Shown in pieces: positions 2,200 through 39,166 of a stretch of DNA of 64,000 nt; within the stretch, counting starts at the first letter, position 1, and every line of letters begins with the position of its first letter. Source of the DNA: Escherichia coli. Lineage in GTDB: Bacteria > Pseudomonadota > Gammaproteobacteria > Enterobacterales > Enterobacteriaceae. Made by a program: the position numbers and the translations under genes. Below the pieces are notes generated by a model. The model was not told the DNA's origin. It made no database searches and worked only from the letters and a program-made list of their open reading frames with translations. The DNA is taken from the NCBI RefSeq assembly GCF_044647545.1, contig NZ_CP172818.1. One strand, 5' to 3'.

Positions 2200-3455
2200 G
2201 TGTCGCAAGATAACAACTTTAGCCAGGGGCCAGTCCCGCAGTCGGCGCGGAAAGGGGTATTGGCATTGACGTTCGTCATGCTGGGATTAACCTTCTTTTC
2301 CGCCAGTATGTGGACCGGCGGCACTCTGGAACCGGTCTTAGCTATCATCAATTCTTTCCTCGCAGTTCTCATCGGTAATCTTCTCCTCGGTATTTACACT
2401 TGATTTCTCGGTTACATTGGCGCAAACCGGCCTGACCACTCATCTTCTTGCTCGCTTCTGGTTTGGTGTTAAAGGCTCATGGCTGCCTTCACTGCTACTG
2501 GGCGGAACTCAGGTTGGCTGGTTTGGCGTCGGTGTGGCGATGTTTGCCATTTCGGTGGGTAAGGCAACCGGGCTGGATATTAATTTGCTGATTGCCGTTT
2601 CCGGTTTACTGATGACCGTCACCGTCTTTTTTGGCATTTGGCGCTGACGGTTCTTTCGGTGATTGCGGTTCCGGCTATCGCCTGCCTGGGCGGTTATTCC
2701 GTGTGGCTGGCTGTTAACGGCATGGGCGGCCTGGACGCATTAAAAGCGGTCGTTCCCGCACAACCGTTAATTTCAATCTCGCGCTGGCGCTGGTTGTGGT
2801 CATTTTCTGGTGGGTACGCTCGCCGCTGGCGCCTTTTGTCCGGTTTGGTCGCAATGCCAAACTGGCGGTGCTGGTGGCGATGGTGGCCTTTTTCCTCGGC
2901 AACTGGTTGATGTTTATTTTCGGTGCAGCGGGCGCTGCGGCACTGCGCATGGCGGATATCTCTGATGTGATGATTGCTCAGGGCCTGCTGCTGCCTGCGA
3001 TTGTGGTGCTGGGGCTGAATATCTGGACCACCAACGATAACGCACTCTATGCGTCGGGTTTAGGTTTCGCCAACATTACCGGGATGTCGAGCAAAACCCT
3101 TTCGGTAATCAACGGTATTATCGGTACGGTCTGCGCATTATGGCTGTATAACAATTTTGTCGGCTGGTTGACCTTCCTTTCGGCAGCTATTCCTCCAGTG
3201 GGTGGCGTGATCATCGCCGACTATCTGATGAACCGTCGCCGCTATGAGCACTTTGCGACCACGCGTATGATGAGTGTCAATTGGGTGGCGATTCTGGCGG
3301 TCGCCTTGGGGATTGCTGCAGGCCACTGGTTACCGGGAATTGTTCCGGTCAACGCGGTATTAGGTGGCGCGCTGAGCTATCTGATCCTTAACCCGATTTT
3401 GAATCGTAAAACGACAGCAGCAATGACGCATGTGGAGGCTAACAGTGTCGAATAA
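2200..3455 (+). pseudogene. codB: cytosine permease, frame-disrupted
   Basis: GTG start at 2200 with upstream SD; N-terminus MSQDNNFSQGPVPQSARKG. Gene is split into four ORF fragments (2200-2403, 2417-2647, 2638-2910, 2796-3455): premature TGA 2401-2403 and frame changes near 2404-2430, ~2636 and ~2770. Confidence 0.8.
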
Positions 3456-4728
3456 CGCTTTACAAACAATTATTAACGCCCGGTTACCAGGCGAAGAGGG
3501 GCTGTGGCAGATTCATCTGCAGGACGGAAAAATCAGCGCCATTGATGCGCAATCCGGCGTGATGCCCATAACTGAAAACAGCCTGGATGCCGAACAAGGT
3601 TTAGTTATACCGCCGTTTGTGGAGCCACATATTCACCTGGACACCACGCAAACCGCCGGACAACCGAACTGGAATCAGTCCGGCACGCTGTTTGAAGGCA
3701 TTGAACGCTGGGCCGAGCGCAAAGCGTTATTAACCCATGACGATGTGAAACAACGCGCATGGCAAACGCTGAAATGGCAGATTGCCAACGGCATTCAGCA
3801 TGTGCGTACCCATGTCGATGTTTCGGATGCAACGCTAACTGCGCTGAAAGCAATGCTGGAAGTGAAGCAGGAAGTCGCGCCGTGGATTGATCTGCAAATC
3901 GTCGCCTTCCCTCAGGAAGGGATTTTGTCGTATCCCAACGGTGAAGCGTTGCTGGAAGAGGCGTTACGCTTAGGGGCAGATGTAGTGGGGGCGATTCCGC
4001 ATTTTGAATTTACCCGTGAATACGGCGTGGAGTCGCTGCATAAAACCTTCGCCCTGGCGCAAAAATACGACCGTCTCATCGACGTTCACTGTGATGAGAT
4101 CGATGACGAGCAGTCGCGCTTTGTCGAAACCGTTGCTGCCCTGGCGCACCATGAAGGCATGGGCGCGCGAGTCACCGCCAGCCACACCACGGCAATGCAC
4201 TCCTATAACGGGGCGTATACCTCACGCCTGTTCCGCTTGCTGAAAATGTCCGGTATTAACTTTGTCGCCAACCCGCTGGTCAATATTCATCTGCAAGGAC
4301 GTTTCGATACGTATCCAAAACGTCGCGGCATCACGCGCGTTAAAGAGATGCTGGAGTCCGGCATTAACGTCTGCTTTGGTCACGATGATGTCTTCGATCC
4401 GTGGTATCCGCTGGGAACGGCGAATATGCTGCAAGTGCTGCATATGGGGCTGCATGTTTGCCAGTTGATGGGCTACGGGCAGATTAACGATGGCCTGAAT
4501 TTAATCACCCACCACAGCGCAAGGACGTTGAATTTGCAGGATTACGGCATTGCCGCCGGAAACAGCGCCAACCTGATTATCCTGCCGGCTGAAAATGGGT
4601 TTGATGCGCTGCGCCGTCAGGTTCCGGTACGTTATTCGGTACGTGGCGGCAAGGTGATTGCCAGCACACAACCGGCACAAACCACCGTATATCTGGAGCA
4701 GCCAGAAGCCATCGATTACAAACGTTGA
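3445..4728 (+). CDS. codA: cytosine deaminase
   Basis: GTG start at 3445 ([14 protein letters not shown]...), 427 aa, 11-bp overlap with codB end; amidohydrolase motifs (HIHLD). Confidence 0.9.
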
Positions 4729-4750
4729 ACGACTGGGTTACAGCGAGCTT

Positions 4751-5150
4751 AGTTTATGCCGGATGCGGCGTGAACGCCTTATCCGGCCTACGTAGAGCAC
4801 TGAACTCGTAGGCCTGATAAGCGTAGCGCATCAGGCAATTCCAGCCGCTGATCTGTGTCAGCGGCTACCGTGATTCATTCCCGCCAACAACCGCGCATTC
4901 CTCCAACGCCATGTGCAAAAATGCCTTCGCAGCGGCTGTCTGCCAGCTGTAGTTTATGCCGGATGCGGCGTGAACGCCTTATCCGGCCTACGTAGAGCAC
5001 TGAACTCGTAGGCCTGATAAGCGTAGCGCATCAGGCAATTCCAGCCGCAGACCTGTGTCAGCGGCTACCGTGATTCATTTCCGCCAACAACCGCGCATTT
5101 ATCCAACGCCATGTGCAAAAATGCCTTCGCGGCGGCTGTCTGCCAGCTAT
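4751..5150. repeat. 200-bp direct tandem duplication (two copies, ~96% identical) containing REP-like palindrome and the 3' end of cynR
   Basis: Copy 1 at 4751-4950 and copy 2 at 4951-5150 align base-for-base with ~7 mismatches; copy 2 overlaps the last ~86 bp of cynR. Confidence 0.8.
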
Positions 5151-5964
5151 TTTTCCGCCGCAACAAAACCGCCGTTCTCTCCAGTAGTGGCGGGGCAAGA
5201 GAAATAGCTTTAAGCCCGTCATGTTGTGTGGCAATCGCTGCTGGTAACAATGTGGAAAGGGAAGTGCGGCGAATCAGCTCCAGAACCGCGCTAATTGAGT
5301 TCGCCTCAATGACCACCTGTGGATGTAGCCCCGCTTTCTCGCAGTAGTGGTCAATTTGCTCTCTGGTGGCAAATTCCGCGCTGAGCAGGACCAGTTTTTC
5401 ATCATGCAAGCGACTCAACGCCACCTGTTCATGGACGGCCAGCGGATGATGTTGCGCCACGACTAACGCTAAACTTTCTGTCAGTAAAGGAATTGCCTCC
5501 AGCTCCGGCGAATGCACAGGCGCGAAGGCAATCCCAACGTCCAACTCGTCGCGGCAAAGCATATCCTCGATTTTCTCCTGCGACATTTCCTGTAGCTGGA
5601 GCGTGATGCTGGGATAGCGCGCATAGAAATCCGCCATTAAGGGGCCGATAAAGTAGCTCGTAAAGGTGGGGGTGACGGCGATACGCAGCGATCCTCGCGT
5701 CAGATCGGCAACATCATGAATCGCCCGTTTACCCGCCCCCAGTTCCTGTAACGCCCGGCTGGCGTACTGTCGCCAGACTTCTCCTGCATCAGTGAGACGA
5801 ATCGTTCGCCCGCTACGGTCAAACAGCGGCACGCCTAAACTCTCCTCTAACTGGCGAATCTGCTGGGAAAGCGCAGGTTGGGAGACGTGCAACGCACTGG
5901 CGGCACGGGTGAAGCTGCCATGTTCAGCCACGGCAAGAAAATAATTGATATGTCGAGAGAGCAT
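5065..5964 (-). CDS. cynR: LysR-type transcriptional regulator of the cyn operon
   Basis: 299-aa ORF starting [40 protein letters not shown] (LysR HTH), divergent from cynT. Confidence 0.9.
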
Positions 5965-6072
5965 TCGCAACCTATAAGTAAATCCAATGGAACTCATCAT
6001 AAATGAGACTTTTACCTTATGACAATCGGCGAGTAGTCTGCCTCTCATTCCAGAGACAGACAGAGGTTAACG

Positions 6073-6732
6073 GTGAAAGAGATTATTGATGGATTCCTTA
6101 AATTCCAGCGCGAGGCATTTCCGAAGCGGGAAGCCTTGTTTAAACAGCTGGCGACACAGCAAAGCCCGCGCACACTTTTTATCTCCTGCTCCGACAGCCG
6201 TCTGGTCCCTGAGCTGGTGACGCAACGTGAGCCTGGCGATCTGTTCGTTATTCGCAACGCGGGCAATATCGTCCCTTCCTACGGGCCGGAACCCGGTGGC
6301 GTTTCTGCTTCGGTGGAGTATGCCGTCGCTGCGCTTCGGGTATCTGACATTGTGATTTGTGGTCATTCCAACTGTGGCGCGATGACCGCCATTGCCAGCT
6401 GTCAGTGCATGGACCATATGCCTGCCGTCTCCCACTGGCTGCGTTATGCCGATTCAGCCCGCGTCGTTAATGAGGCGCGCCCGCATTCCGATTTACCGTC
6501 AAAAGCTGCGGCGATGGTACGTGAAAACGTCATTGCTCAGTTGGCTAATTTGCAAACTCATCCATCGGTGCGCCTGGCGCTCGAAGAGGGGCGGATCGCC
6601 CTGCACGGCTGGGTCTACGACATTGAAAGCGGCAGCATCGCAGCTTTTGACGGCGCAACCCGCCAGTTTGTGCCACTGGCCGCTAATCCTCGCGTTTGTG
6701 CCATACCGCTACGCCAACCGACCGCAGCGTAA
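6073..6732 (+). CDS. cynT: carbonic anhydrase (beta class)
   Basis: 219-aa ORF, GTG start; beta-carbonic-anhydrase motifs (CSDSR, HSNCG). Confidence 0.9.
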
Positions 6733-6744
6733 CCTTATTTTTAA

Positions 6745-7233
<489 letters not shown>

Positions 7234-7265
7234 CAGCCATGCGCAACCATCAAAAGACGTTCACG

Positions 7266-8420
7266 ATGCTGCTGGTACTGGTGCTGATTGGTCTTAATAT
7301 GCGACCACTGCTCACCTCCGTCGGGCCACTGCTACCGCAATTGCGCCAGGCGAGCGGAATGAGCTTTAGCGTGGCTGCCCTGTTGACCGCTCTGCCGGTG
7401 GTTACCATGGGCGGGCTGGCGCTGGCCGGAAGCTGGCTTCATCAGCATGTCAGCGAACGTCGCAGTGTCGCCATCAGTCTGTTGCTGATTGCCGTCGGTG
7501 CATTGATGCGTGAGCTTTACCCGCAAAGTGCGCTGCTGCTTAGCAGCGCACTGCTTGGTGGGGTGGGGATCGGCATCATTCAGGCGGTGATGCCTTCGGT
7601 GATTAAACGGCGGTTTCAGCAGCGCACGCCACTGGTGATGGGGCTGTGGTCCGCGGCTCTGATGGGCGGCGGTGGGCTTGGTGCCGCCATAACGCCCTGG
7701 TTAGTTCAACATAGCGAAACCTGGTATCAAACACTCGCCTGGTGGGCGCTGCCTGCCGTTGTTGCGCTCTTTGCCTGGTGGTGGCAAAGCGCCCGCGAGG
7801 TCGCCTCTTCCCACAAGACAACAACCACTCCGGTTCGCGTGGTATTCACTCCCCGCGCGTGGACGCTGGGTGTTTACTTCGGTCTGATTAACGGCGGTTA
7901 CGCCAGCCTGATTGCCTGGTTACCCGCTTTCTATATTGAGATTGGTGCCAGCGCGCAGTACAGCGGTTCCTTACTGGCATTGATGACGCTTGGGCAAGCC
8001 GCAGGAGCTTTGCTGATGCCTGCTATGGCTCGCCATCAGGATCGGCGCAAACTGTTAATGCTGGCGCTGGTGTTACAACTGGTGGGGTTCTGCGGCTTTA
8101 TCTGGCTGCCGATGCAATTGCCGGTATTGTGGGCGATGGTGTGTGGGTTAGGTCTGGGCGGCGCGTTTCCGCTCTGTTTGCTGCTGGCGCTCGATCACTC
8201 TGTGCAACCGGCTATTGCTGGCAAGCTGGTGGCGTTTATGCAGGGAATCGGTTTTATCATCGCCGGGCTTGCCCCGTGGTTTTCTGGCGTGCTGCGTAGT
8301 ATCAGCGGCAATTACCTGATGGACTGGGCATTTCATGCGCTGTGCGTCGTTGGGCTGATGATCATAACCCTGCGTTTTGCACCAGTACGTTTTCCGCAGC
8401 TGTGGGTCAAAGAGGCATGA
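7266..8420 (+). CDS. cynX: MFS cyanate transporter
   Basis: Hydrophobic multi-TM ORF; 384 aa from ATG 7266 (an upstream in-frame ATG at 7239 would give 393 aa). Confidence 0.85.
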   Translation: MLLVLVLIGLNMRPLLTSVGPLLPQLRQASGMSFSVAALLTALPVVTMGGLALAGSWLHQHVSERRSVAISLLLIAVGALMRELYPQSALLLSSALLGGVGIGIIQAVMPSVIKRRFQQRTPLVMGLWSAALMGGGGLGAAITPWLVQHSETWYQTLAWWALPAVVALFAWWWQSAREVASSHKTTTTPVRVVFTPRAWTLGVYFGLINGGYASLIAWLPAFYIEIGASAQYSGSLLALMTLGQAAGALLMPAMARHQDRRKLLMLALVLQLVGFCGFIWLPMQLPVLWAMVCGLGLGGAFPLCLLLALDHSVQPAIAGKLVAFMQGIGFIIAGLAPWFSGVLRSISGNYLMDWAFHALCVVGLMIITLRFAPVRFPQLWVKEA

Positions 8421-8520
8421 TGCGACGCTTGTTCCTGCGCTTTGTTCATGCCGGATGCGGCTAATGTAGATCGCTGAACTTGTAGGCCTGATAAGCGCAG
8501 CGTATCAGGCAATTTTTATA
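8421..8520. repeat. REP-like palindromic element between cynX and lacA
   Basis: GCCGGATGCGGC / GCCTGATAAGCGCAGCG palindromic units. Confidence 0.5.
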
Positions 8521-8522
8521 AT

Positions 8523-9134
8523 TTAAACTGACGATTCAACTTTATAATCTTTGAAATAATAGTGCTTATCCCGGTCGTTTATTTCGCGAATAACCCGACA
8601 AGGAACGCCAGCCGCCACGACGTTTGGTGGAATGTCTTTTGTGACGATACTACCCGCGCCAATAACAGAATTATCCCCGATGGTGACGCCTGGATTAATA
8701 ACCACATGACTTCCGATCCAGACGTTATTGCCAATCGTTATCGGAAAAGAGTACATCTCGCCGTTTTTTCTCAATTCATGGTGTACAGGGTGTCCCGTAA
8801 CGGAAAGAGTAACGTTGGGTGCAATCAGTACGTTATCACCGATTGTTACCGTGTAGTCATCGACAATGGTTAAATTGAAATTTGCATAAAAATTGCGGCC
8901 TATATGGATGTTGGAACCGTAAGAGAAATAGACAGGCGGTTCTACCCAGGCGTTTTCCCCTACCGTGGCAAACATTTCTTTAATCAGGCTTTCTCTTTTT
9001 TCAACTTCTGATGGATGCGAGTGATTAAACTCATACATTAACGTTTTCCCACGAAGTCTTTTTTCCGGTAAGCCTTCGCACATATCGGTAAATAGCTTGC
9101 CTGCTCTTATTCTTTCGGTCATTGGCATGTTCAA
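8523..9134 (-). CDS. lacA: galactoside O-acetyltransferase
   Basis: 203-aa hexapeptide-repeat acetyltransferase; start is TTG (complement at 9132-9134) giving LNMPMTER, consistent with the known unusual lacA start. Confidence 0.9.
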   Translation of the reverse strand: MNMPMTERIRAGKLFTDMCEGLPEKRLRGKTLMYEFNHSHPSEVEKRESLIKEMFATVGENAWVEPPVYFSYGSNIHIGRNFYANFNLTIVDDYTVTIGDNVLIAPNVTLSVTGHPVHHELRKNGEMYSFPITIGNNVWIGSHVVINPGVTIGDNSVIGAGSIVTKDIPPNVVAAGVPCRVIREINDRDKHYYFKDYKVESSV

Positions 9135-9199
9135 TGCGATCACTCCGTTATGATATGTTGGTCGGATAAGGCGCTCGCGCCGCATCCGACATTGATTGC

Positions 9200-10498
<1,299 letters not shown>

Positions 10499-22155: not shown

Positions 22156-22329
22156 TGATGACTGCCGAGAACGTGCATTTTGTATGCCCATCCCAGCACG
22201 ACTGCCGGATGTAAACGCCTTGTTCGGCCTACATTTTCTTCGCCTGTAGGCAGTCATTAAATGGTTCTGATTACGCGGCTGGCAATGTATCAGCCGCGAT
22301 TCACCTGCACTCGCAACGAGGTTCATCTT

Positions 22330-24199: not shown

Positions 24200-24340
24200 G
24201 CAGCACCCACACCAGCCAGCAAGAGCGGATAAGGCGTCCGCCCACCGGCAGCGTGCATCCTGATGACGCTTTGCATCTATCATCCTAGTTTCCAGAAATA
24301 GGATAAGGCGTTCACGCCGCATCCGGCAGTCGTGCACTAT
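24200..24340. repeat. REP-like palindromic elements between yaiL and frmB
   Basis: GGATAAGGCGTTCACGCCGCATCCGGCAG-type units. Confidence 0.5.
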
Positions 24341-26762: not shown

Positions 26763-26871
26763 ATAACACTGGAGAATAAAATTTATCCGGTGAATGTAGT
26801 CGGATAACAAAAAGGAAAGAGGGGCCTAATCGACAGGGAAGGCCGCCCCGGATAGCGGGCGGCAGAAGCAA

Positions 26872-27645
26872 TCAGAATTTCCAGGTCAGATGGGCTGCAA
26901 GTTGCAGACCGTTATAATCATCGGTTGGGGTGTCGTACCACACTTTACCTGCCGTCAGCCCGAGATTAAGTTGCTCAGTCAGCGGTTGAATACGTTGCAG
27001 ACTGACGCTCTTCATGCTGCCGTAGCGTGTTTCTGGCGTCCAGTCATAGGTGTAAGCGCCTGTTCCGCGGCTTAGCCATAGTTGCGTATAACCAGTGCCG
27101 CGCGGGTCATTCAGACGCACGGAAATCATATTGCTGTAACTACCACCTGCATCGCTGGAGTCATAATGGGTATAGCGGTAGCTGGAGATCACCGGGCCAG
27201 TATAGAGGGATACGCCGCCTTGCCAGGCATCGACTTCGACATCATCGTAATATTTAGTGTAGCGATAACCGGTCGTGAAAAGCGTTTTTGGCAACAGGGC
27301 CAGGTTAATATCCTGACGAAAATCCTGGCGGGCAAAGACCGGCGTATTATCCGCAAAGGCAATACCCGTTCGGGTTGTCAGCCAGTTATTCCATTTATAC
27401 CAGACCGCACCCTGACCGCGAGTGGCATTGAAATGTTCAGTTTCATAATCACGACGCCCCTGGGAAAGATTAAAAAGCAGCGTTGCGTTTTCAACTTTCG
27501 CCACCAGTTCAGCATACGCTAAATTACGATTGCCATGATCGCCAGAATAATCGGTAAAATCGTAGCCCGCGGTAATGGAAGTTAACCCGGCATAAGCGGG
27601 CAATGTGCTAAAAATGGCCGCCGCTAATAACGTCCGTTTTATCAT
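26872..27645 (-). CDS. yaiO: outer-membrane beta-barrel protein
   Basis: 257-aa ORF with signal peptide (MIKRTLLAAAIFSTLPAYA) and C-terminal aromatic residue (…HLTWKF). Confidence 0.85.
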   Translation of the reverse strand: MIKRTLLAAAIFSTLPAYAGLTSITAGYDFTDYSGDHGNRNLAYAELVAKVENATLLFNLSQGRRDYETEHFNATRGQGAVWYKWNNWLTTRTGIAFADNTPVFARQDFRQDINLALLPKTLFTTGYRYTKYYDDVEVDAWQGGVSLYTGPVISSYRYTHYDSSDAGGSYSNMISVRLNDPRGTGYTQLWLSRGTGAYTYDWTPETRYGSMKSVSLQRIQPLTEQLNLGLTAGKVWYDTPTDDYNGLQLAAHLTWKF

Positions 27646-27646
27646 T

Positions 27647-28203
27647 TTAATCTCCTGTACGGATAAGTTCTTGTCGGAGTGAATAAGTTCCGGTAGGTAA
27701 ATTACGTTCTACAATCACGCGCGGGCCAAGTTGCGTGTTCGGGGAAATAATTCGCCCAGGCAAAATAATAACTTGTACGCCAAGGCGTGAACGCTGTCCG
27801 ATATAACAACCTAATTTATCGCATCCGGTAGCGATAATTCCCTCTGGAGTTCGAACAGACACGGGCTGTTCATCCAGACGATGATTACTGGTACGTACTT
27901 GTGCGCCCAAATATGCCTGGTTTGCGACTACCGAGTCGGCAATAAAACATTGCGGACCAATCGTTGCTTCCGCTTCAATAACCGCATTTTTAATTTCGGT
28001 GGCGAAACCAATTTTTACGCCATTGCTGATTATTGTGCCAGGACGAATAAACGAAATTACCTATCAGGCAGTTTGCGCCAATCACTACCGGACCCTGAAT
28101 AACGGCACCGTGACAAATACGGGTATTCGCGCCGATAACAACTTCACCTGCAGTTTCATCAATAATTACCTGGTCTGCAATCTGAATATTTTTCTCTTTA
28201 ACA
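27647..28203 (-). pseudogene. yaiX: hexapeptide-repeat acyltransferase, frameshifted
   Basis: Hexapeptide repeats (VIGANTRICHGAVIQGPVVIGANCLIGN) continue in another frame (IRPGTIISNGVKIGFA...) with the switch near 28040-28060; no IS element at the break. Confidence 0.7.
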
Positions 28204-29400
28204 TTAAGCTTCAGAAAGTTTTTCAGTTCCTGTGACAGAAGGTTGGGAATAAGCGGTTGACGCTTCCACCAGTGCGGAATAGCGGGTGGGTTTGTCGCGC
28301 TGAGGTTCGCGTCCAGTAAAAAAGGCAATAAGTCCATAAATAATCCAGATGGCATAAGCTAATAATACATACACAACGGAAAGCGGCGCTAAAGGCACCA
28401 ACAACCAGCAACGATGAAACCAGGCGCTAAAAGCACCAATAACACAAACTACGCCGACCCAGATAAGCGGAAACATTGCCAACACCACACCATGCGGCCC
28501 GGTGGTGATGAATTCATTAAACCAGGTAGTGAGATAAATCCCAACGCCATAAAGCACAACCAACAGCATAGGAAATATACTGAAGATACCGAAGCGGCTA
28601 AATAAAAGTCTTTTATGCAGGCGCATACAGACCGCGTAGCCCACAATCCAACGCCGCCAGCGACGCCATTCCTCACGCGGGCTGTTGCATTCCTGTGGGT
28701 ATACGATGCAGCGATTCGCCTGCCGAATACGATAGCCGTTTGCCACCAATGTCCAGGTGAGATCAAGGTCTTCGACTTTAGTACGATCAGAGAAACCGAA
28801 CTTACGCAATACATCAGTACGGAACATCCCGCAGGCACCGCTGATAATAAACGGTGCGCCGCCCAGGAGCTGCTGTAGCGTGCGCTTCATAACAATCATC
28901 GGCAACTTTACGGTCGCGCGGATGTGCGGTAACAGCCCCGCGCCTTTCAACGCAGTAGAGGGAATGCCGCCTACGGCATCAGCACCGCGCTCAATTTCTG
29001 CCAGCATATAGCCCATTCCGTCTTGATCGGGCGGAACATAGGTGTCGGCATCACTTAAAAAAACCTGGTCGCAGGTGGCGTAATTGAGGCCATTCATCAG
29101 CGCACCACCTTTACCGGTATTTTTTTGCGTGACGGCAACAAAGCGGTCGCCCCATTTGCGTTTGACTTCCGCCATGACCGCTTCGGTATTGTCCGTGGAG
29201 CCGTCGTTAACGCAAATTACCCGGCAAAAATAAGGGTTACGCAGCAGATTATCCAGTGACTGCGCCAGACACGGGCCTTCGTTATAAGCAGGTATAATGG
29301 CGTCAATACAGCCTTTTTTTTGGCTGGGCTTACGCCTTAACGTACTCAGGAACCATAGCAATATTGCTACGGCCATACAGATAAATATCCAGGTTTTCAT
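28204..29400 (-). CDS. yaiP: membrane glycosyltransferase, family 2
   Basis: 398-aa ORF with N-terminal TM, GT-A signatures (CVNDGSTDNT, SDADTYV) and C-terminal TM helices. Confidence 0.85.
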   Translation of the reverse strand: MKTWIFICMAVAILLWFLSTLRRKPSQKKGCIDAIIPAYNEGPCLAQSLDNLLRNPYFCRVICVNDGSTDNTEAVMAEVKRKWGDRFVAVTQKNTGKGGALMNGLNYATCDQVFLSDADTYVPPDQDGMGYMLAEIERGADAVGGIPSTALKGAGLLPHIRATVKLPMIVMKRTLQQLLGGAPFIISGACGMFRTDVLRKFGFSDRTKVEDLDLTWTLVANGYRIRQANRCIVYPQECNSPREEWRRWRRWIVGYAVCMRLHKRLLFSRFGIFSIFPMLLVVLYGVGIYLTTWFNEFITTGPHGVVLAMFPLIWVGVVCVIGAFSAWFHRCWLLVPLAPLSVVYVLLAYAIWIIYGLIAFFTGREPQRDKPTRYSALVEASTAYSQPSVTGTEKLSEA

Positions 29401-29409
29401 GCAATTTGC

Positions 29410-30081
29410 TCAAAGAATCATTTTATGAATTACAAAGCCTTCACCCAGATCGCTATTGACCTGTTGCCCGCGAAATTGTGCAACTGCACGCAGGCGATCA
29501 TGACGCATATAATCGCGTCGTTCCTGGCTTTTATGTTTTTTTAATGCAGCAAGTTTGACTGTGAAATATTCTTCTTTAACGGATTCAAAAACCTGAGGCA
29601 TAAATGAAAGCCAGGTACTCGGGGTTTCGTAGCCGAGAATTTGTGGAATAGTTCGGCAGGCAACCATTGAGGCTTGATAGACTGCAAGATGATCCTGATG
29701 GCGGTCAGCATCATGCATGGTGTATACACGAATGATTTCTACATCAGACGGAATTTGATTTTTAATGATGTCTTCCAGGGCGGAAATCATATCATTGAGC
29801 TGTAAATGAGCGCGGGTGTCAGCAAAATTAAGATGAATAGTTTGGTGGCACCCTAATATCTTTAGGGCGTTGCGCGATTCTTCATGGCGATCGATTATTC
29901 CATCTGTGCCAGAGTTGCCGGTAGTCATCACCACGGCTGCGATATAAATTCCTTTTTGCGCAAGACGAGCAAGCGATGCGCCACAGCCTAATTCTATATC
30001 GTCAGGATGTGCGCCAATAGCAAGGATACCCTTTCTTTTATTTGCCGAAGAAAGGAGGGCTGAATCTAAAACCTTATCCAC
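29410..30081 (-). CDS. yaiS: PIG-L/LmbE-family deacetylase
   Basis: 223-aa ORF with AHPDDIELGCG motif near the N-terminus; a shorter 185-aa version (start at 29967) would lack this motif. Confidence 0.75.
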   Translation of the reverse strand: MDKVLDSALLSSANKRKGILAIGAHPDDIELGCGASLARLAQKGIYIAAVVMTTGNSGTDGIIDRHEESRNALKILGCHQTIHLNFADTRAHLQLNDMISALEDIIKNQIPSDVEIIRVYTMHDADRHQDHLAVYQASMVACRTIPQILGYETPSTWLSFMPQVFESVKEEYFTVKLAALKKHKSQERRDYMRHDRLRAVAQFRGQQVNSDLGEGFVIHKMIL

Positions 30082-34111: not shown

Positions 34112-34135
34112 ACGGATAACCCGGCATAATGATCA

Positions 34136-35110: not shown

Positions 35111-37124
35111 GGTCTGCCTGATGTTTGTGGAATCGAGGGGCATAGTATACCTGAAGCAGGGTGGGGATGTTTTACGAAAGTTGTCGCGATGTTGACAAGA
35201 AGAGAATGAATGAGAGGCCAGGACATCTTTGTAATAGAAATAGCAATAATTTCATATTCACTGAAAATATTTTTAATTTTTATTTATAGTCATGGATTAT
35301 TGTTTTTGGGGATTTGGTTGCGTTATCAAAAACGGAATGATTTAAAGTTCATTGGTTATTGATAGATTATTTGTCTGGTTTGTGTGTTTGATATTTTAAA
35401 TGCATATGCTTTAAAAATGGAAATCCTGTTAACTTGTTGAAACATTAAGCCTTTATCAATTTTTTCTTTGTGTGTTCCTCCGTGCTTTATATATGTCCGT
35501 AACCGGACTTCGGGGAAAGAATAATTGAACCATTCCTCAATAACGCCGCATAATCGTTAGCGCGAAACATAATATGTTTTCTATGCATTGATAATTGATG
35601 GATCAACTTATTACGTCCCTGAGGAGGGATGACAAATGCACTCCTGGAAAAAGAAACTTGTAGTATCACAATTAGCATTGGCTTGCACTCTGGCTATCAC
35701 CTCTCAGGCTAATGCAGCGACCTACTGATACCTGGACTTATATCGATAATCCCGTTACAGCACTTGATTGGGATCATATGGATAAGGCAGGCACTGTAGA
35801 TGGCAACTATGTAAACTATAGTGGTTTTGTCTATTACAACAACACCAATGGTGATTTCGATCAGTCCTTTAACGGCGATACCGTTAACGGCACGATCTCA
35901 ACCTATTATTTGAACCATGATTATGCAGACAGTACTGCTAATCAGCTTGATATCAGTAATTCAGTGATTCACGGTTCGATTACTTCTATGCTGCCTGGCG
36001 GTTATTATGATCGTTTTGATGCAGATGGTAATAATCTGGGTGGATATGATTTTTACACTGATGCGGTTGTTGATACACACTGGCGTGATGGTGATGTTTT
36101 CACTTTGAACATTGCTAACACTACTATTGATGATGATTATGAAGCTCTTTACTTCACTGATTCTTATAAAGATGGTGATGTAACCAAGCACACAAATGAG
36201 ACATTTGATACAAGTGAAGGCGTTGCTGTTAATCTTGATGTAGAAAGTAACATCAATATTTCCAATAACTCCCGCGTTGCAGGTATTGCATTATCTCAAG
36301 GTAATACTTACAACGAAACCTACACTACCGAATCTCATACTTGGGATAACAATATCTCTGTAAAAGATTCCACAGTGACTTCGGGTTCAAATTATATCCT
36401 GGATAGCAATACTTATGGCAAAACTGGTCACTTTGGCAATTCTGATGAACCGAGTGATTATGCTGGCCCGGGTGATGTTGCAATGTCCTTTACTGCTTCA
36501 GGTTCCGACTATGCGATGAAGAACAATGTATTCCTCAGCAATTCAACGCTGATGGGTGATGTTGCCTTTACCAGCACCTGGAATAGTAATTTTGATCCGA
36601 ATGGTCATGATTCCAACGGTGACGGGGTGAAAGATACCAACGGGGGTTGGACTGATGATAGCCTCAACGTTGATGAACTAAATCTCACTCTCGATAACGG
36701 AAGCAAGTGGGTTGGTCAGGCAATTTATAACGTTGCTGAAACGTCAGCAATGTATGATGTTGCTACAAACAGCCTTACTCCTGATGCAACATATGAAAAC
36801 AATGACTGGAAACGTGTTGTTGATGACAAGGTCTTCCAGAGCGGTGTATTTAACGTAGCGTTGAATAACGGTTCTGAATGGGATACTACAGGTCGTTCCA
36901 TCGTTGATACCTTGACAGTTAATAATGGTTCTCAGGTTAATGTTTCGGAATCTAAATTAACTTCAGATACTATCGATTTAACTAACGGTTCTTCGCTGAA
37001 CATTGGTGAAGATGGCTACGTTGATACCGATCATCTGACTATTAACTCCTACAGTACTGTTGCGTTGACCGAATCTACTGGGTGGGGGGCTGATTGATCC
37101 TACCCACGTAATATGGACACAGGC

Positions 37125-37991
37125 CTAAGCGAGGTTCTTGTTTTCAAATTGTTCCGGACTGAGGCCGCCACACCAACTGTGCCGCCGCCACCGATTGTAA
37201 TCACATTCGATATAATTAAACACCGTTGCCCGCATTATTTCCCGGCTGATAAAGTGTTCTCCATGGATACATTCCACTTTCAGCGAATGAAAGAAGCTTT
37301 CCACGCAGGCATTATCGTAGCAGCAACCTTTTGCGCTCATACTTCCACGCAGATTATGCCGCTTCAGTTGCGCCTGATAATCTGCTGAACAGTACTGGCC
37401 TCCACGGTCCGTGTGAACGATAACGTTCCGGGGCCTCTTACGCCGCCACAGCGCCATCTGCAGGGCATCGCAGGCCAGTTGCGCCGTCATGCGTGGCGAC
37501 ATTGACCAGCCAATAACGGCACGTGACCACAGGTCAATGACCACTGCCAGATACAGCCAGCCTTCATCTGTACGTAAGTACGTGATGTCTCCTGCCCACT
37601 TCTGGTTCGGGCCACTGGCGTAAAAATCCTGCTCCAACAGATTTTCTGACACAGGCAGGCCGTGTGCGCGGTAGCTGACCGGGCTGAACTTCCGGGAGGC
37701 CTTTGCCCTCAGTCCCTGACGGCGCAGGCTTGCCGCCACGGTTTTTACGTTAAAGGGGTAACCCTGAGCACGCAGTTCATCCGTCAGGCGTGGGGCACCG
37801 TAACGCTGTTTTGACCGGGTAAAAGCCGCGAGGACAACGCTGTCGCAGTGTTGGCGGAACTGCTGACGCGTGCTTATCCTTGTCCGCCGCTGACACCACG
37901 TATACCAGCCGCTGCGGGCCACCCGGAGCACGCGGCACATTGCTTTGATGCTGAACTCAGCCTGATGTTTTTCAATAAAGACATACTTCAT
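37125..37991 (-). CDS. insF: IS3 transposase OrfB (DDE integrase domain), expressed with OrfA by -1 frameshifting
   Basis: 288-aa ORF overlapping insE by 4 bp (ATGA); DDE/integrase-like translation. Confidence 0.9.
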
Positions 37992-38296
37992 TTCAGGCGC
38001 TTCGCGAAGTATGTCGCGGCCTTTTGGAGGATAGCCAGCTCTTCATCCCGTTCTGCCAGCTGGCGTTTGAGACGTGCAATCTCGGTAGACATCTCCAGTT
38101 CACGTTCAGAAGACGTCTGCTGATTTTGCTGTTTACTGCGCCAGTTGTAGAGTTGTGATTCATACAGGCTGAGTTCACGGGCTGCGGCAGTAACACCGAT
38201 GCGTTCAGCAAGCTTCAGGGCTTCACTGCGAAATTCAGGCGAATGCTGTTTACGGGGTTTTTTACTGGTTGATACTGTTTTTGTCATGTGAGTCAC
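37988..38296 (-). CDS. insE: IS3 transposase OrfA (HTH)
   Basis: 102-aa [58 protein letters not shown]... Confidence 0.9.
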
Positions 38297-39166
38297 CTCT
38301 GACTGAGAGTTTACTCACTTAGCCGCGTGTCCACTATTGCTGGGTAAGATCAGATTACAACCTGTACGCCAATACTATCACCGTAACTAACGGCGGTGTA
38401 TTGGATGTGAACGTTGATCAGTTCGATACTGAAGCTTTCCGTACTGACAAACTGGAACTGACCAGCGGCAACATCGCTGACCATAACGGTAACGTAGTAT
38501 CTGGTGTGTTCAATATCGAAAGCAACCGCTTCGTACTTGATGCCGACCTGACCAACGACCGTACCAACGATACTACCAAGTCAAACTACGGTTATGGTTT
38601 AATCGCAATGAACTCTGATGGTCACCTGACCATTAACGGTAACGGCGATAACGACAACACTGCTTCTATCGAAGCTGGTCAGAACGAAGTTGATAACAAC
38701 GGTGACCATGTTGCAGCTGCAACCGGTAACTACAAAGTTCGTATCGACAACGCTACTGGTGCTGGTTCTATCGCTGACTACAACGGCAACGAGCTGATCT
38801 ACGTTAACGACAAAAACAGCAACGCGACCTTCTCTGCTGCTAACAAAGCTGACCTGGGTGCATACACCTATCAGGCTGAACAGCGCGGTAACACCGTTGT
38901 TCTGCAACAGATGGAGCTGACCGACTACGCTAACATGGCGCTGAGCATCCCGTCTGCGAACACCAATATCTGGAACCTGGAACAAGACACCGTTGGTACT
39001 CGTCTGACCAACTCTCGTCATGGCCTGGCTGATAACGGCGGCGCATGGGTAAGCTACTTCGGTGGTAACTTCAACGGCGACAATGGCACCATCAACTATG
39101 ATCAGGATGTTAACGGCATCATGGTCGGTGTTGATACCAAAATTGACGGTAACAACGCTAAGTGGA

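Follow-up and report, generated by a model that had tools for sequence, protein, structure and literature searches.

In Escherichia coli K-12 W3110, yaiX is interrupted by a 1331-bp IS2 flanked by a duplicated 5-bp ATTAC, and the junctions read ...CATAATTAC, IS2 and ATTACCTATC... in this order, in agreement with what the preliminary description of the present DNA had stated about K-12. According to a meeting abstract, in the form in which EcoGene 3.0 cites it, the repaired yaiX' promotes clumping in a manner that requires yaiP (PMC3531124). Moreover, overexpression of a 71-aa product of K-12 yaiX was reported to lead to multidrug resistance (2026; PMC13058169). Here we analysed yaiX in a 64-kb stretch of E. 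coli DNA (hereafter the window), where the same gene in the same operon, yaiS-yaiP-yaiX-yaiO, is disrupted within 1-5 bp of the K-12 site. For both disruptions, the predicted outcome is a left-handed beta-helix that lacks its C-terminal two thirds. Where K-12 has the 1331-bp IS2 and two copies of ATTAC, the window lacks IS2 and has one ATTAC next to a 2-bp loss, and its flanking haplotype is of the FDAARGOS_497 type, unlike that of K-12. As argued below from patterns in the DNA, this frameshift is very probably a scar of in-silico IS2 removal and not a bacterial mutation. The reports of clumping and resistance leave the verdict on the frameshift unchanged.

Intact YaiX is a left-handed beta-helix protein whose length is 193 residues when counted from the RefSeq start and 230 or 236 residues according to other gene calls, and the intact orthologue scores 66 bits against Pfam Hexapep (cut-off 27), which bears out the earlier naming of the gene as a hexapeptide acyltransferase. 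Its residues 25-182 align with residues 241-398 of ST0452 (E = 6.6e-23; PDB 2ggo, 5z09), indicating homology to the C-terminal acetyltransferase domain of this Sulfolobus tokodaii protein and to GlmU-type left-handed beta-helix enzymes, though YaiX is without their nucleotidyltransferase domain. The best NCBIfam score for YaiX was obtained with the archaeal GlmU subfamily model, but at 128.6 bits it stays below the cut-off of 292.1 bits, and no other NCBIfam cut-off was reached either. Within the aligned residues 90-100 of YaiX (intact gene at L001:1751-2329, minus strand), Gly-Pro-Gln-Cys-Phe stands against Pro-His308-Leu-Ser-Tyr311 of ST0452, placing Pro92/Gln93 of YaiX where ST0452 has His308. 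We take His308 to be the catalytic His of GlmU/ST0452-type acetyltransferases. Judged by this alignment, YaiX seems to lack that residue and its chemistry may differ. With a score below the cut-off and Pro92 aligned with His308, YaiX was not assigned functional equivalence to the GlmU/ST0452-type enzymes.

On the minus strand, yaiX is flanked by yaiO and yaiP. The upstream yaiP (28204-29400, minus strand), which belongs to the same operon and whose end overlaps the yaiX start, encodes an intact, PgaC-like GT2 glycosyltransferase. The intact outer-membrane beta-barrel gene yaiO (26872-27645, minus strand) begins with an ATG 1 nt after the yaiX stop and has its own GGAG. The four-gene cluster at 26872-30081 thus consists of the YaiS PIG-L deacetylase, the YaiP GT2, the YaiX acetyltransferase and the YaiO barrel, and apart from yaiX the operon is intact in the window. 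The arrangement yaiS-yaiP-yaiX-yaiO resembles a small synthase-type exopolysaccharide locus and fits the clumping phenotype in EcoGene 3.0.

Two collinear minus-strand ORFs in different frames, 27990..28355 and 27647..27910, cover yaiX in the window. Translation of the 5' part (27990-28226, minus strand) from 28226 begins with 57 correct codons, whose product is identical to the intact protein; it then runs out of frame through 21 unrelated codons and ends prematurely, with a stop at 27990-27992. The 3' part (27647-28057, minus strand) lies in the +1 frame, where nothing interrupts the reading between 28057 and the normal stop at 27647-27649. Its product matches the intact FDAARGOS_497 orthologue at every residue from F60 to the C-terminus, and it shows no secondary decay. 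Because each half alone passes the Pfam Hexapep (PF00132) cut-off of 27 bits (36.4 bits for the 5' part and 36.8 bits for the 3' part) and the frames are collinear, a chance pair of ORFs is excluded, and yaiX is confirmed as a split gene in the window sequence as given. The frame switch had been estimated at 28040-28060, and the aligned break at 28053-28056 falls inside this range. On the other hand, the proposed extent of the gene, 27647-28203, is right at its 3' end only, since the 5' end extends past 28203 to a start at 28226, 28337 or 28355. The PGAP-equivalent start is a CTG at 28226 (RefSeq 193-aa model), with no ATG, GTG or TTG nearby. The ATG at 28337 (230 aa) is the start in most yaiX gene calls of the protein collection, and the ATG at 28355 gives 236 aa, the length of the variant discussed in PMC13058169. 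With either ATG, the overlap with yaiP amounts to 134-152 nt, in another frame.

With an overlap of about 70 nt between the two frames, and a downstream frame that is open throughout, the split gene would suit a programmed +1 ribosomal frameshift yielding full-length YaiX. Such recoding is barely credible here. The split architecture is not conserved among orthologues, thousands of which have no break, and is seen in the window alone; an allele seen once cannot carry a conserved recoding signal. By inspection, the overlap contains no prfB-type +1 site (CUU UGA with an upstream SD).

We aligned the break with the intact genes of FDAARGOS_497, M8, BS-04 and E. whittamii, all of which have CGCATAATTAC. 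The sole yaiX lesion relative to them is the change of CGCATAATTAC to CGAAATTAC at 28053-28056, where a C and a T one base apart are lost. The intact G-C-A-T-A-A reads G-A-A-A in the window, and on the coding strand TATGCG becomes TTCG at codons 58-59. The net loss of 2 bases against all four references, with the rest collinear, is the kind of indel that defines a frameshift pseudogene. This lesion is the only difference between the window and FDAARGOS_497 over 26800-29500.

Not one of 5,426 complete E. coli genomes has the lesion allele, and no JGI metagenome contig carried it in two scans that lacked a positive control based on the intact allele. Exact look-up of the N-fragment products from four possible starts found none of them among 15 billion proteins, a collection that does contain the repaired 236-aa form. 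The 87-aa C-fragment is a recorded protein, yet the window lesion was absent from all ten contigs that we inspected for it; these show lesions of other kinds, runs of N, a contig end or no indel at all. The allele was thus not reproduced in any independent assembly. Among GTDB species representatives, E. whittamii is the sole match, with the intact sequence. Of 40 matching genomes taken as a spread sample, 36 had an unbroken yaiX. The breaks known from elsewhere are of other kinds, namely IS2 in K-12, IS1 in DETEC-P61, and 1-bp, 47-bp and 109-bp deletions in other contigs.

The K-12 IS2 target, ATTAC, is present at 28056-28060 as a single copy, and the lesion is 1 bp from it or touches it. For a random site in the 582-bp gene, the chance of touching the IS2 target is about 2%. 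No IS2 DNA was matched anywhere in the 64-kb window (blastn, E<=1e-3), and no IS2 terminus of at least 8 nt was found within 27900-28200. The preliminary description was therefore right that no insertion element is present at the break, and the IS2 sequence that would have contradicted it is absent. It had also tied the break to IS2. The lesion does adjoin the K-12 target, but the tie is most likely a computational one and not the loss of an IS2 that left a footprint. When the flanks were aligned in search of the suggested 5-bp target duplication, only one ATTAC was seen at the break, i.e. neither a duplicated target nor IS2 terminal sequence marks an insertion or excision. Imprecise excision from an IS2-bearing ancestor, suggested by a lesion lying 1 bp from the ATTAC used in K-12, is highly improbable also because the flanks are of the FDAARGOS_497 type, with about 45 differences in 2.7 kb from the IS2-bearing K-12 haplotype. 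IS3-family elements, including IS2, transpose by a copy-out-paste-in mechanism without excision from the donor. When excision does occur, rarely and independently of transposase, it happens between the two copies of the target, so that the wild type is recovered and no bases outside are deleted. This textbook behaviour of IS2 in transposition and excision likewise speaks against the loss of a resident element.

The make-up of the window as a whole bears on the lesion. Per-kilobase comparison showed that the window is a two-parent chimera of K-12 and FDAARGOS_497. Two blocks have zero differences from K-12 W3110. The first (2947-9577) runs from the 3' part of codB through codA, cynRTSX and lacA into lacY, and the second (35726-38511), which comprises the 5' part of yaiT and IS3, is placed inside sequence identical to FDAARGOS_497. 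The rest of 9302-64000 (54.7 kb) is identical to FDAARGOS_497 except for five small clusters at 22211, 24265-24301, 28054-55, 34112-14 and 35723-26. Four of the five coincide with the four sites at which K-12 is longer than the window, namely 22197-22211 (+404 nt), 24203-24301 (+65 nt), 28055-28060 (+1336 nt, i.e. IS2 with one ATTAC) and 34114-34135 (+81 nt), and the fifth is on the edge of the K-12 block at 35726. Thus, all five clusters of difference in the 54.7 kb are confined to junctions or block edges specific to the reference, and each of the four K-12-specific insertions, the one in yaiX among them, shows a small base loss at its junction. Compared with FDAARGOS_497, GCGGC (5 nt) is missing at 22197-22211, about 16 nt are missing at 24203-24301 as many small losses, and 15 nt are missing at 34112-34135. 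These three scars are in intergenic, REP-like regions and are of the same class as the yaiX lesion.

The second K-12 block also has edges that are difficult to reconcile with recombination. Homology to FDAARGOS_497 stops at 35730 and resumes at 38501, so that the edges of the block at 35726 and 38511 lie within 5-11 nt of both limits, and FDAARGOS-type SNPs stand only 5 nt outside the block. A switch of parent so close to the limit of homology, with SNPs 5 nt away, leaves no room for a natural crossover. Within the block, K-12 has yaiT::IS3 where FDAARGOS_497 has an intact ehaB. Findings of IS3 or of recombination in the window should be treated as possible fill-in from the reference.

To judge sequence quality, all K-12 genes of the region were compared with the window, and prpE and codB at its start turned out to be wrecked. 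Positions 1-2950, covering prpE and the 5' half of codB, contain at least 14 small indels, mostly single-base losses, some of them clustered within 10-35 nt, and several G<->C transversions. These changes are private to the window, since even the best match among the 5,426 genomes reaches no more than 98.6% identity and has 9 nt more. Directly after the garbled stretch, the sequence is 100% K-12 from 2947 on, codA included. Positions 1-2950 have the look of a consensus with poor support, not of decaying genes. The garbled CodB fragment of the window has entered RefSeq as WP_400165115.1, a number near those of private HS-01 proteins (WP_4001686xx/WP_4001687xx).

The same yaiX junction can be followed in assemblies that are probably related. 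BS-01, HS-01 and BS-04 (CP172816, CP172817 and CP172819) come from one Indonesian farm project and are 4.49-4.52 Mb in size, and the window is probably from the same submission batch as HS-01 and BS-04, the proximity of the accessions being part of the basis. Our literature search found no paper describing the Sukabumi genomes or their assembly method. Removal of 1336 bp (IS2 and one ATTAC) from K-12 yields the intact sequence, and BS-04 has exactly this junction. On the other hand, HS-01 (NZ_CP172817.1, L004 1545) has lost CAT on the same three bases as the window lesion in a different haplotype, and its junction equals K-12 minus a single 1339-bp deletion. To obtain the window junction, 1 bp and 1337 bp must be taken from K-12, an excess of 2 bp. 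HS-01 and the window thus show independent errors at one junction. At yaiT::IS3, BS-04 (L006 30000-32000) is also identical to K-12 over a block that is bordered at each end by dense differences, and the whole set of HS-01, BS-04 and BS-01 may be reference-guided. In BS-01 (L021), partial, 'frameshifted' fragments of IS2, IS3 and IS1 replace yaiP-yaiS.

These patterns suggest how the lesion may have arisen. The source chromosome would be a consensus built on an E. coli K-12 reference, with reads from a strain that resembles FDAARGOS_497 in this region. Regions not covered by the sample reads would be left as K-12, K-12-specific insertions absent from the sample would be removed as called deletions with slightly wrong breakpoints, and poorly supported stretches would come out garbled. 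In yaiX, IS2 and one ATTAC (1336 bp) would have been due for removal, and 2 bp extra would have been taken, breaking the frame. The locus resembles reference-guided consensus artefacts in its reference-identical blocks bounded at the limits of homology, in its losses at every reference-specific insertion, in its garbled low-confidence stretches and in the different error at the same junction of a probable sister assembly. It differs from them in that the yaiX junction needs two deletions relative to the reference and not one, which counts against an artefact. We prefer the artefact because all five differences sit on K-12-specific structures and HS-01 has an error at the same junction. Further support comes from the untouched downstream frame and the rest of the operon, from the absence of the allele among the genomes, metagenome contigs and proteins searched, and from the garbling of 1-2950 by private indels beside 100% K-12 sequence. 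Reference guidance is our reading of these sequence patterns, whereas the chimeric make-up, the co-location with K-12 structural differences and the junction arithmetic are directly observed. The isolate itself probably carries an intact yaiX of 193 codons, and a continuous ORF is predicted after correction of the sequence.

The main point in favour of a real mutation is a perfect 8-bp inverted repeat, formed by TAATTTCG (27991-27998) with CGAAATTA (28052-28059), which is created by the lesion and exists in the lesion allele only. It resembles the outcome of quasi-palindrome (template-switch) mutations in E. coli, where two non-adjacent losses turn an imperfect repeat into a perfect one, and in this respect it also counts against an artefact. 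One template switch between TAATTTCG and CGCATAATTA could have removed the bulged C and T, so that a single templated event would account for both base losses. A genuine, recent and strain-private frameshift was in fact our first reading; we dropped it after the K-12 junction pattern appeared and kept it as a minor rival, which we regard as unlikely. A perfect inverted repeat arose in 2% of simulated replacements of the same class (3-to-1), or in about 5% when direct repeats were counted too, and the predicted DNA fold contains the 8-bp stem with its 53-nt spacer. However, this stem is weak and the fold is not significant (z = -1.3). Unlike known quasi-palindrome mutations, the arms here are only 8 bp long and 53 nt apart, and the K-12 junction explains the site better. 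We judged the inverted repeat to be coincidental. That yaiX is broken in several other ways elsewhere, and that no further error occurs within several kb of the lesion, would also fit a real frameshift. Yet this reading leaves unexplained the abutment to the K-12 IS2 target, the HS-01 lesion on the same three bases and the position of all five window-versus-FDAARGOS_497 differences on K-12 structural differences or block edges, and the allele was not seen in any of the collections searched. Because of the HS-01 lesion and the position of the five differences, the independent frameshift in an IS-free ancestor proposed in the preliminary description is not the best reading either.

Intact yaiX also contains a 10-bp direct repeat, ATAATTACCT, whose copies are 109 bp apart (L001 2156-2165 and 2265-2274; window 28055-28062 and 28164-28171). 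One copy overlaps the IS2 target, and a metagenome contig (L014, 1347-1356) has an exact 109-bp deletion between the two copies. It is quite unlikely that the lesion is real and marks a natural fragile site in the 11 bp at yaiX nt 165-175, which are AT-rich, include one copy of the 10-bp repeat and lie beside the quasi-palindrome. If a fragile site did exist there, IS2 in K-12, the CAT loss in HS-01, the C/T loss in the window and the 109-bp deletion in L014 would converge on it, and it would mean recurrent inactivation of an operon reported to promote clumping.

The preferred reading, an assembly scar, matters for how the record is used. Taken at face value, the lesion would be logged either as the footprint of an excised IS2 or as evidence that yaiX had been inactivated a second time, independently. 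The window, and probably the whole source chromosome and the sister assemblies, mixes K-12 reference with sample sequence, and frameshifts, pseudogenes, IS content and apparent recombination tracts found here should be given no biological interpretation without the reads. As a separate observation, yaiO-yaiX-yaiP matches about 30 places on plasmid-classed records, e.g. H30, NZ_CP031707.1 (E. coli R1, a 127,578-bp record), and these may be mislabelled chromosome fragments or large chromids.
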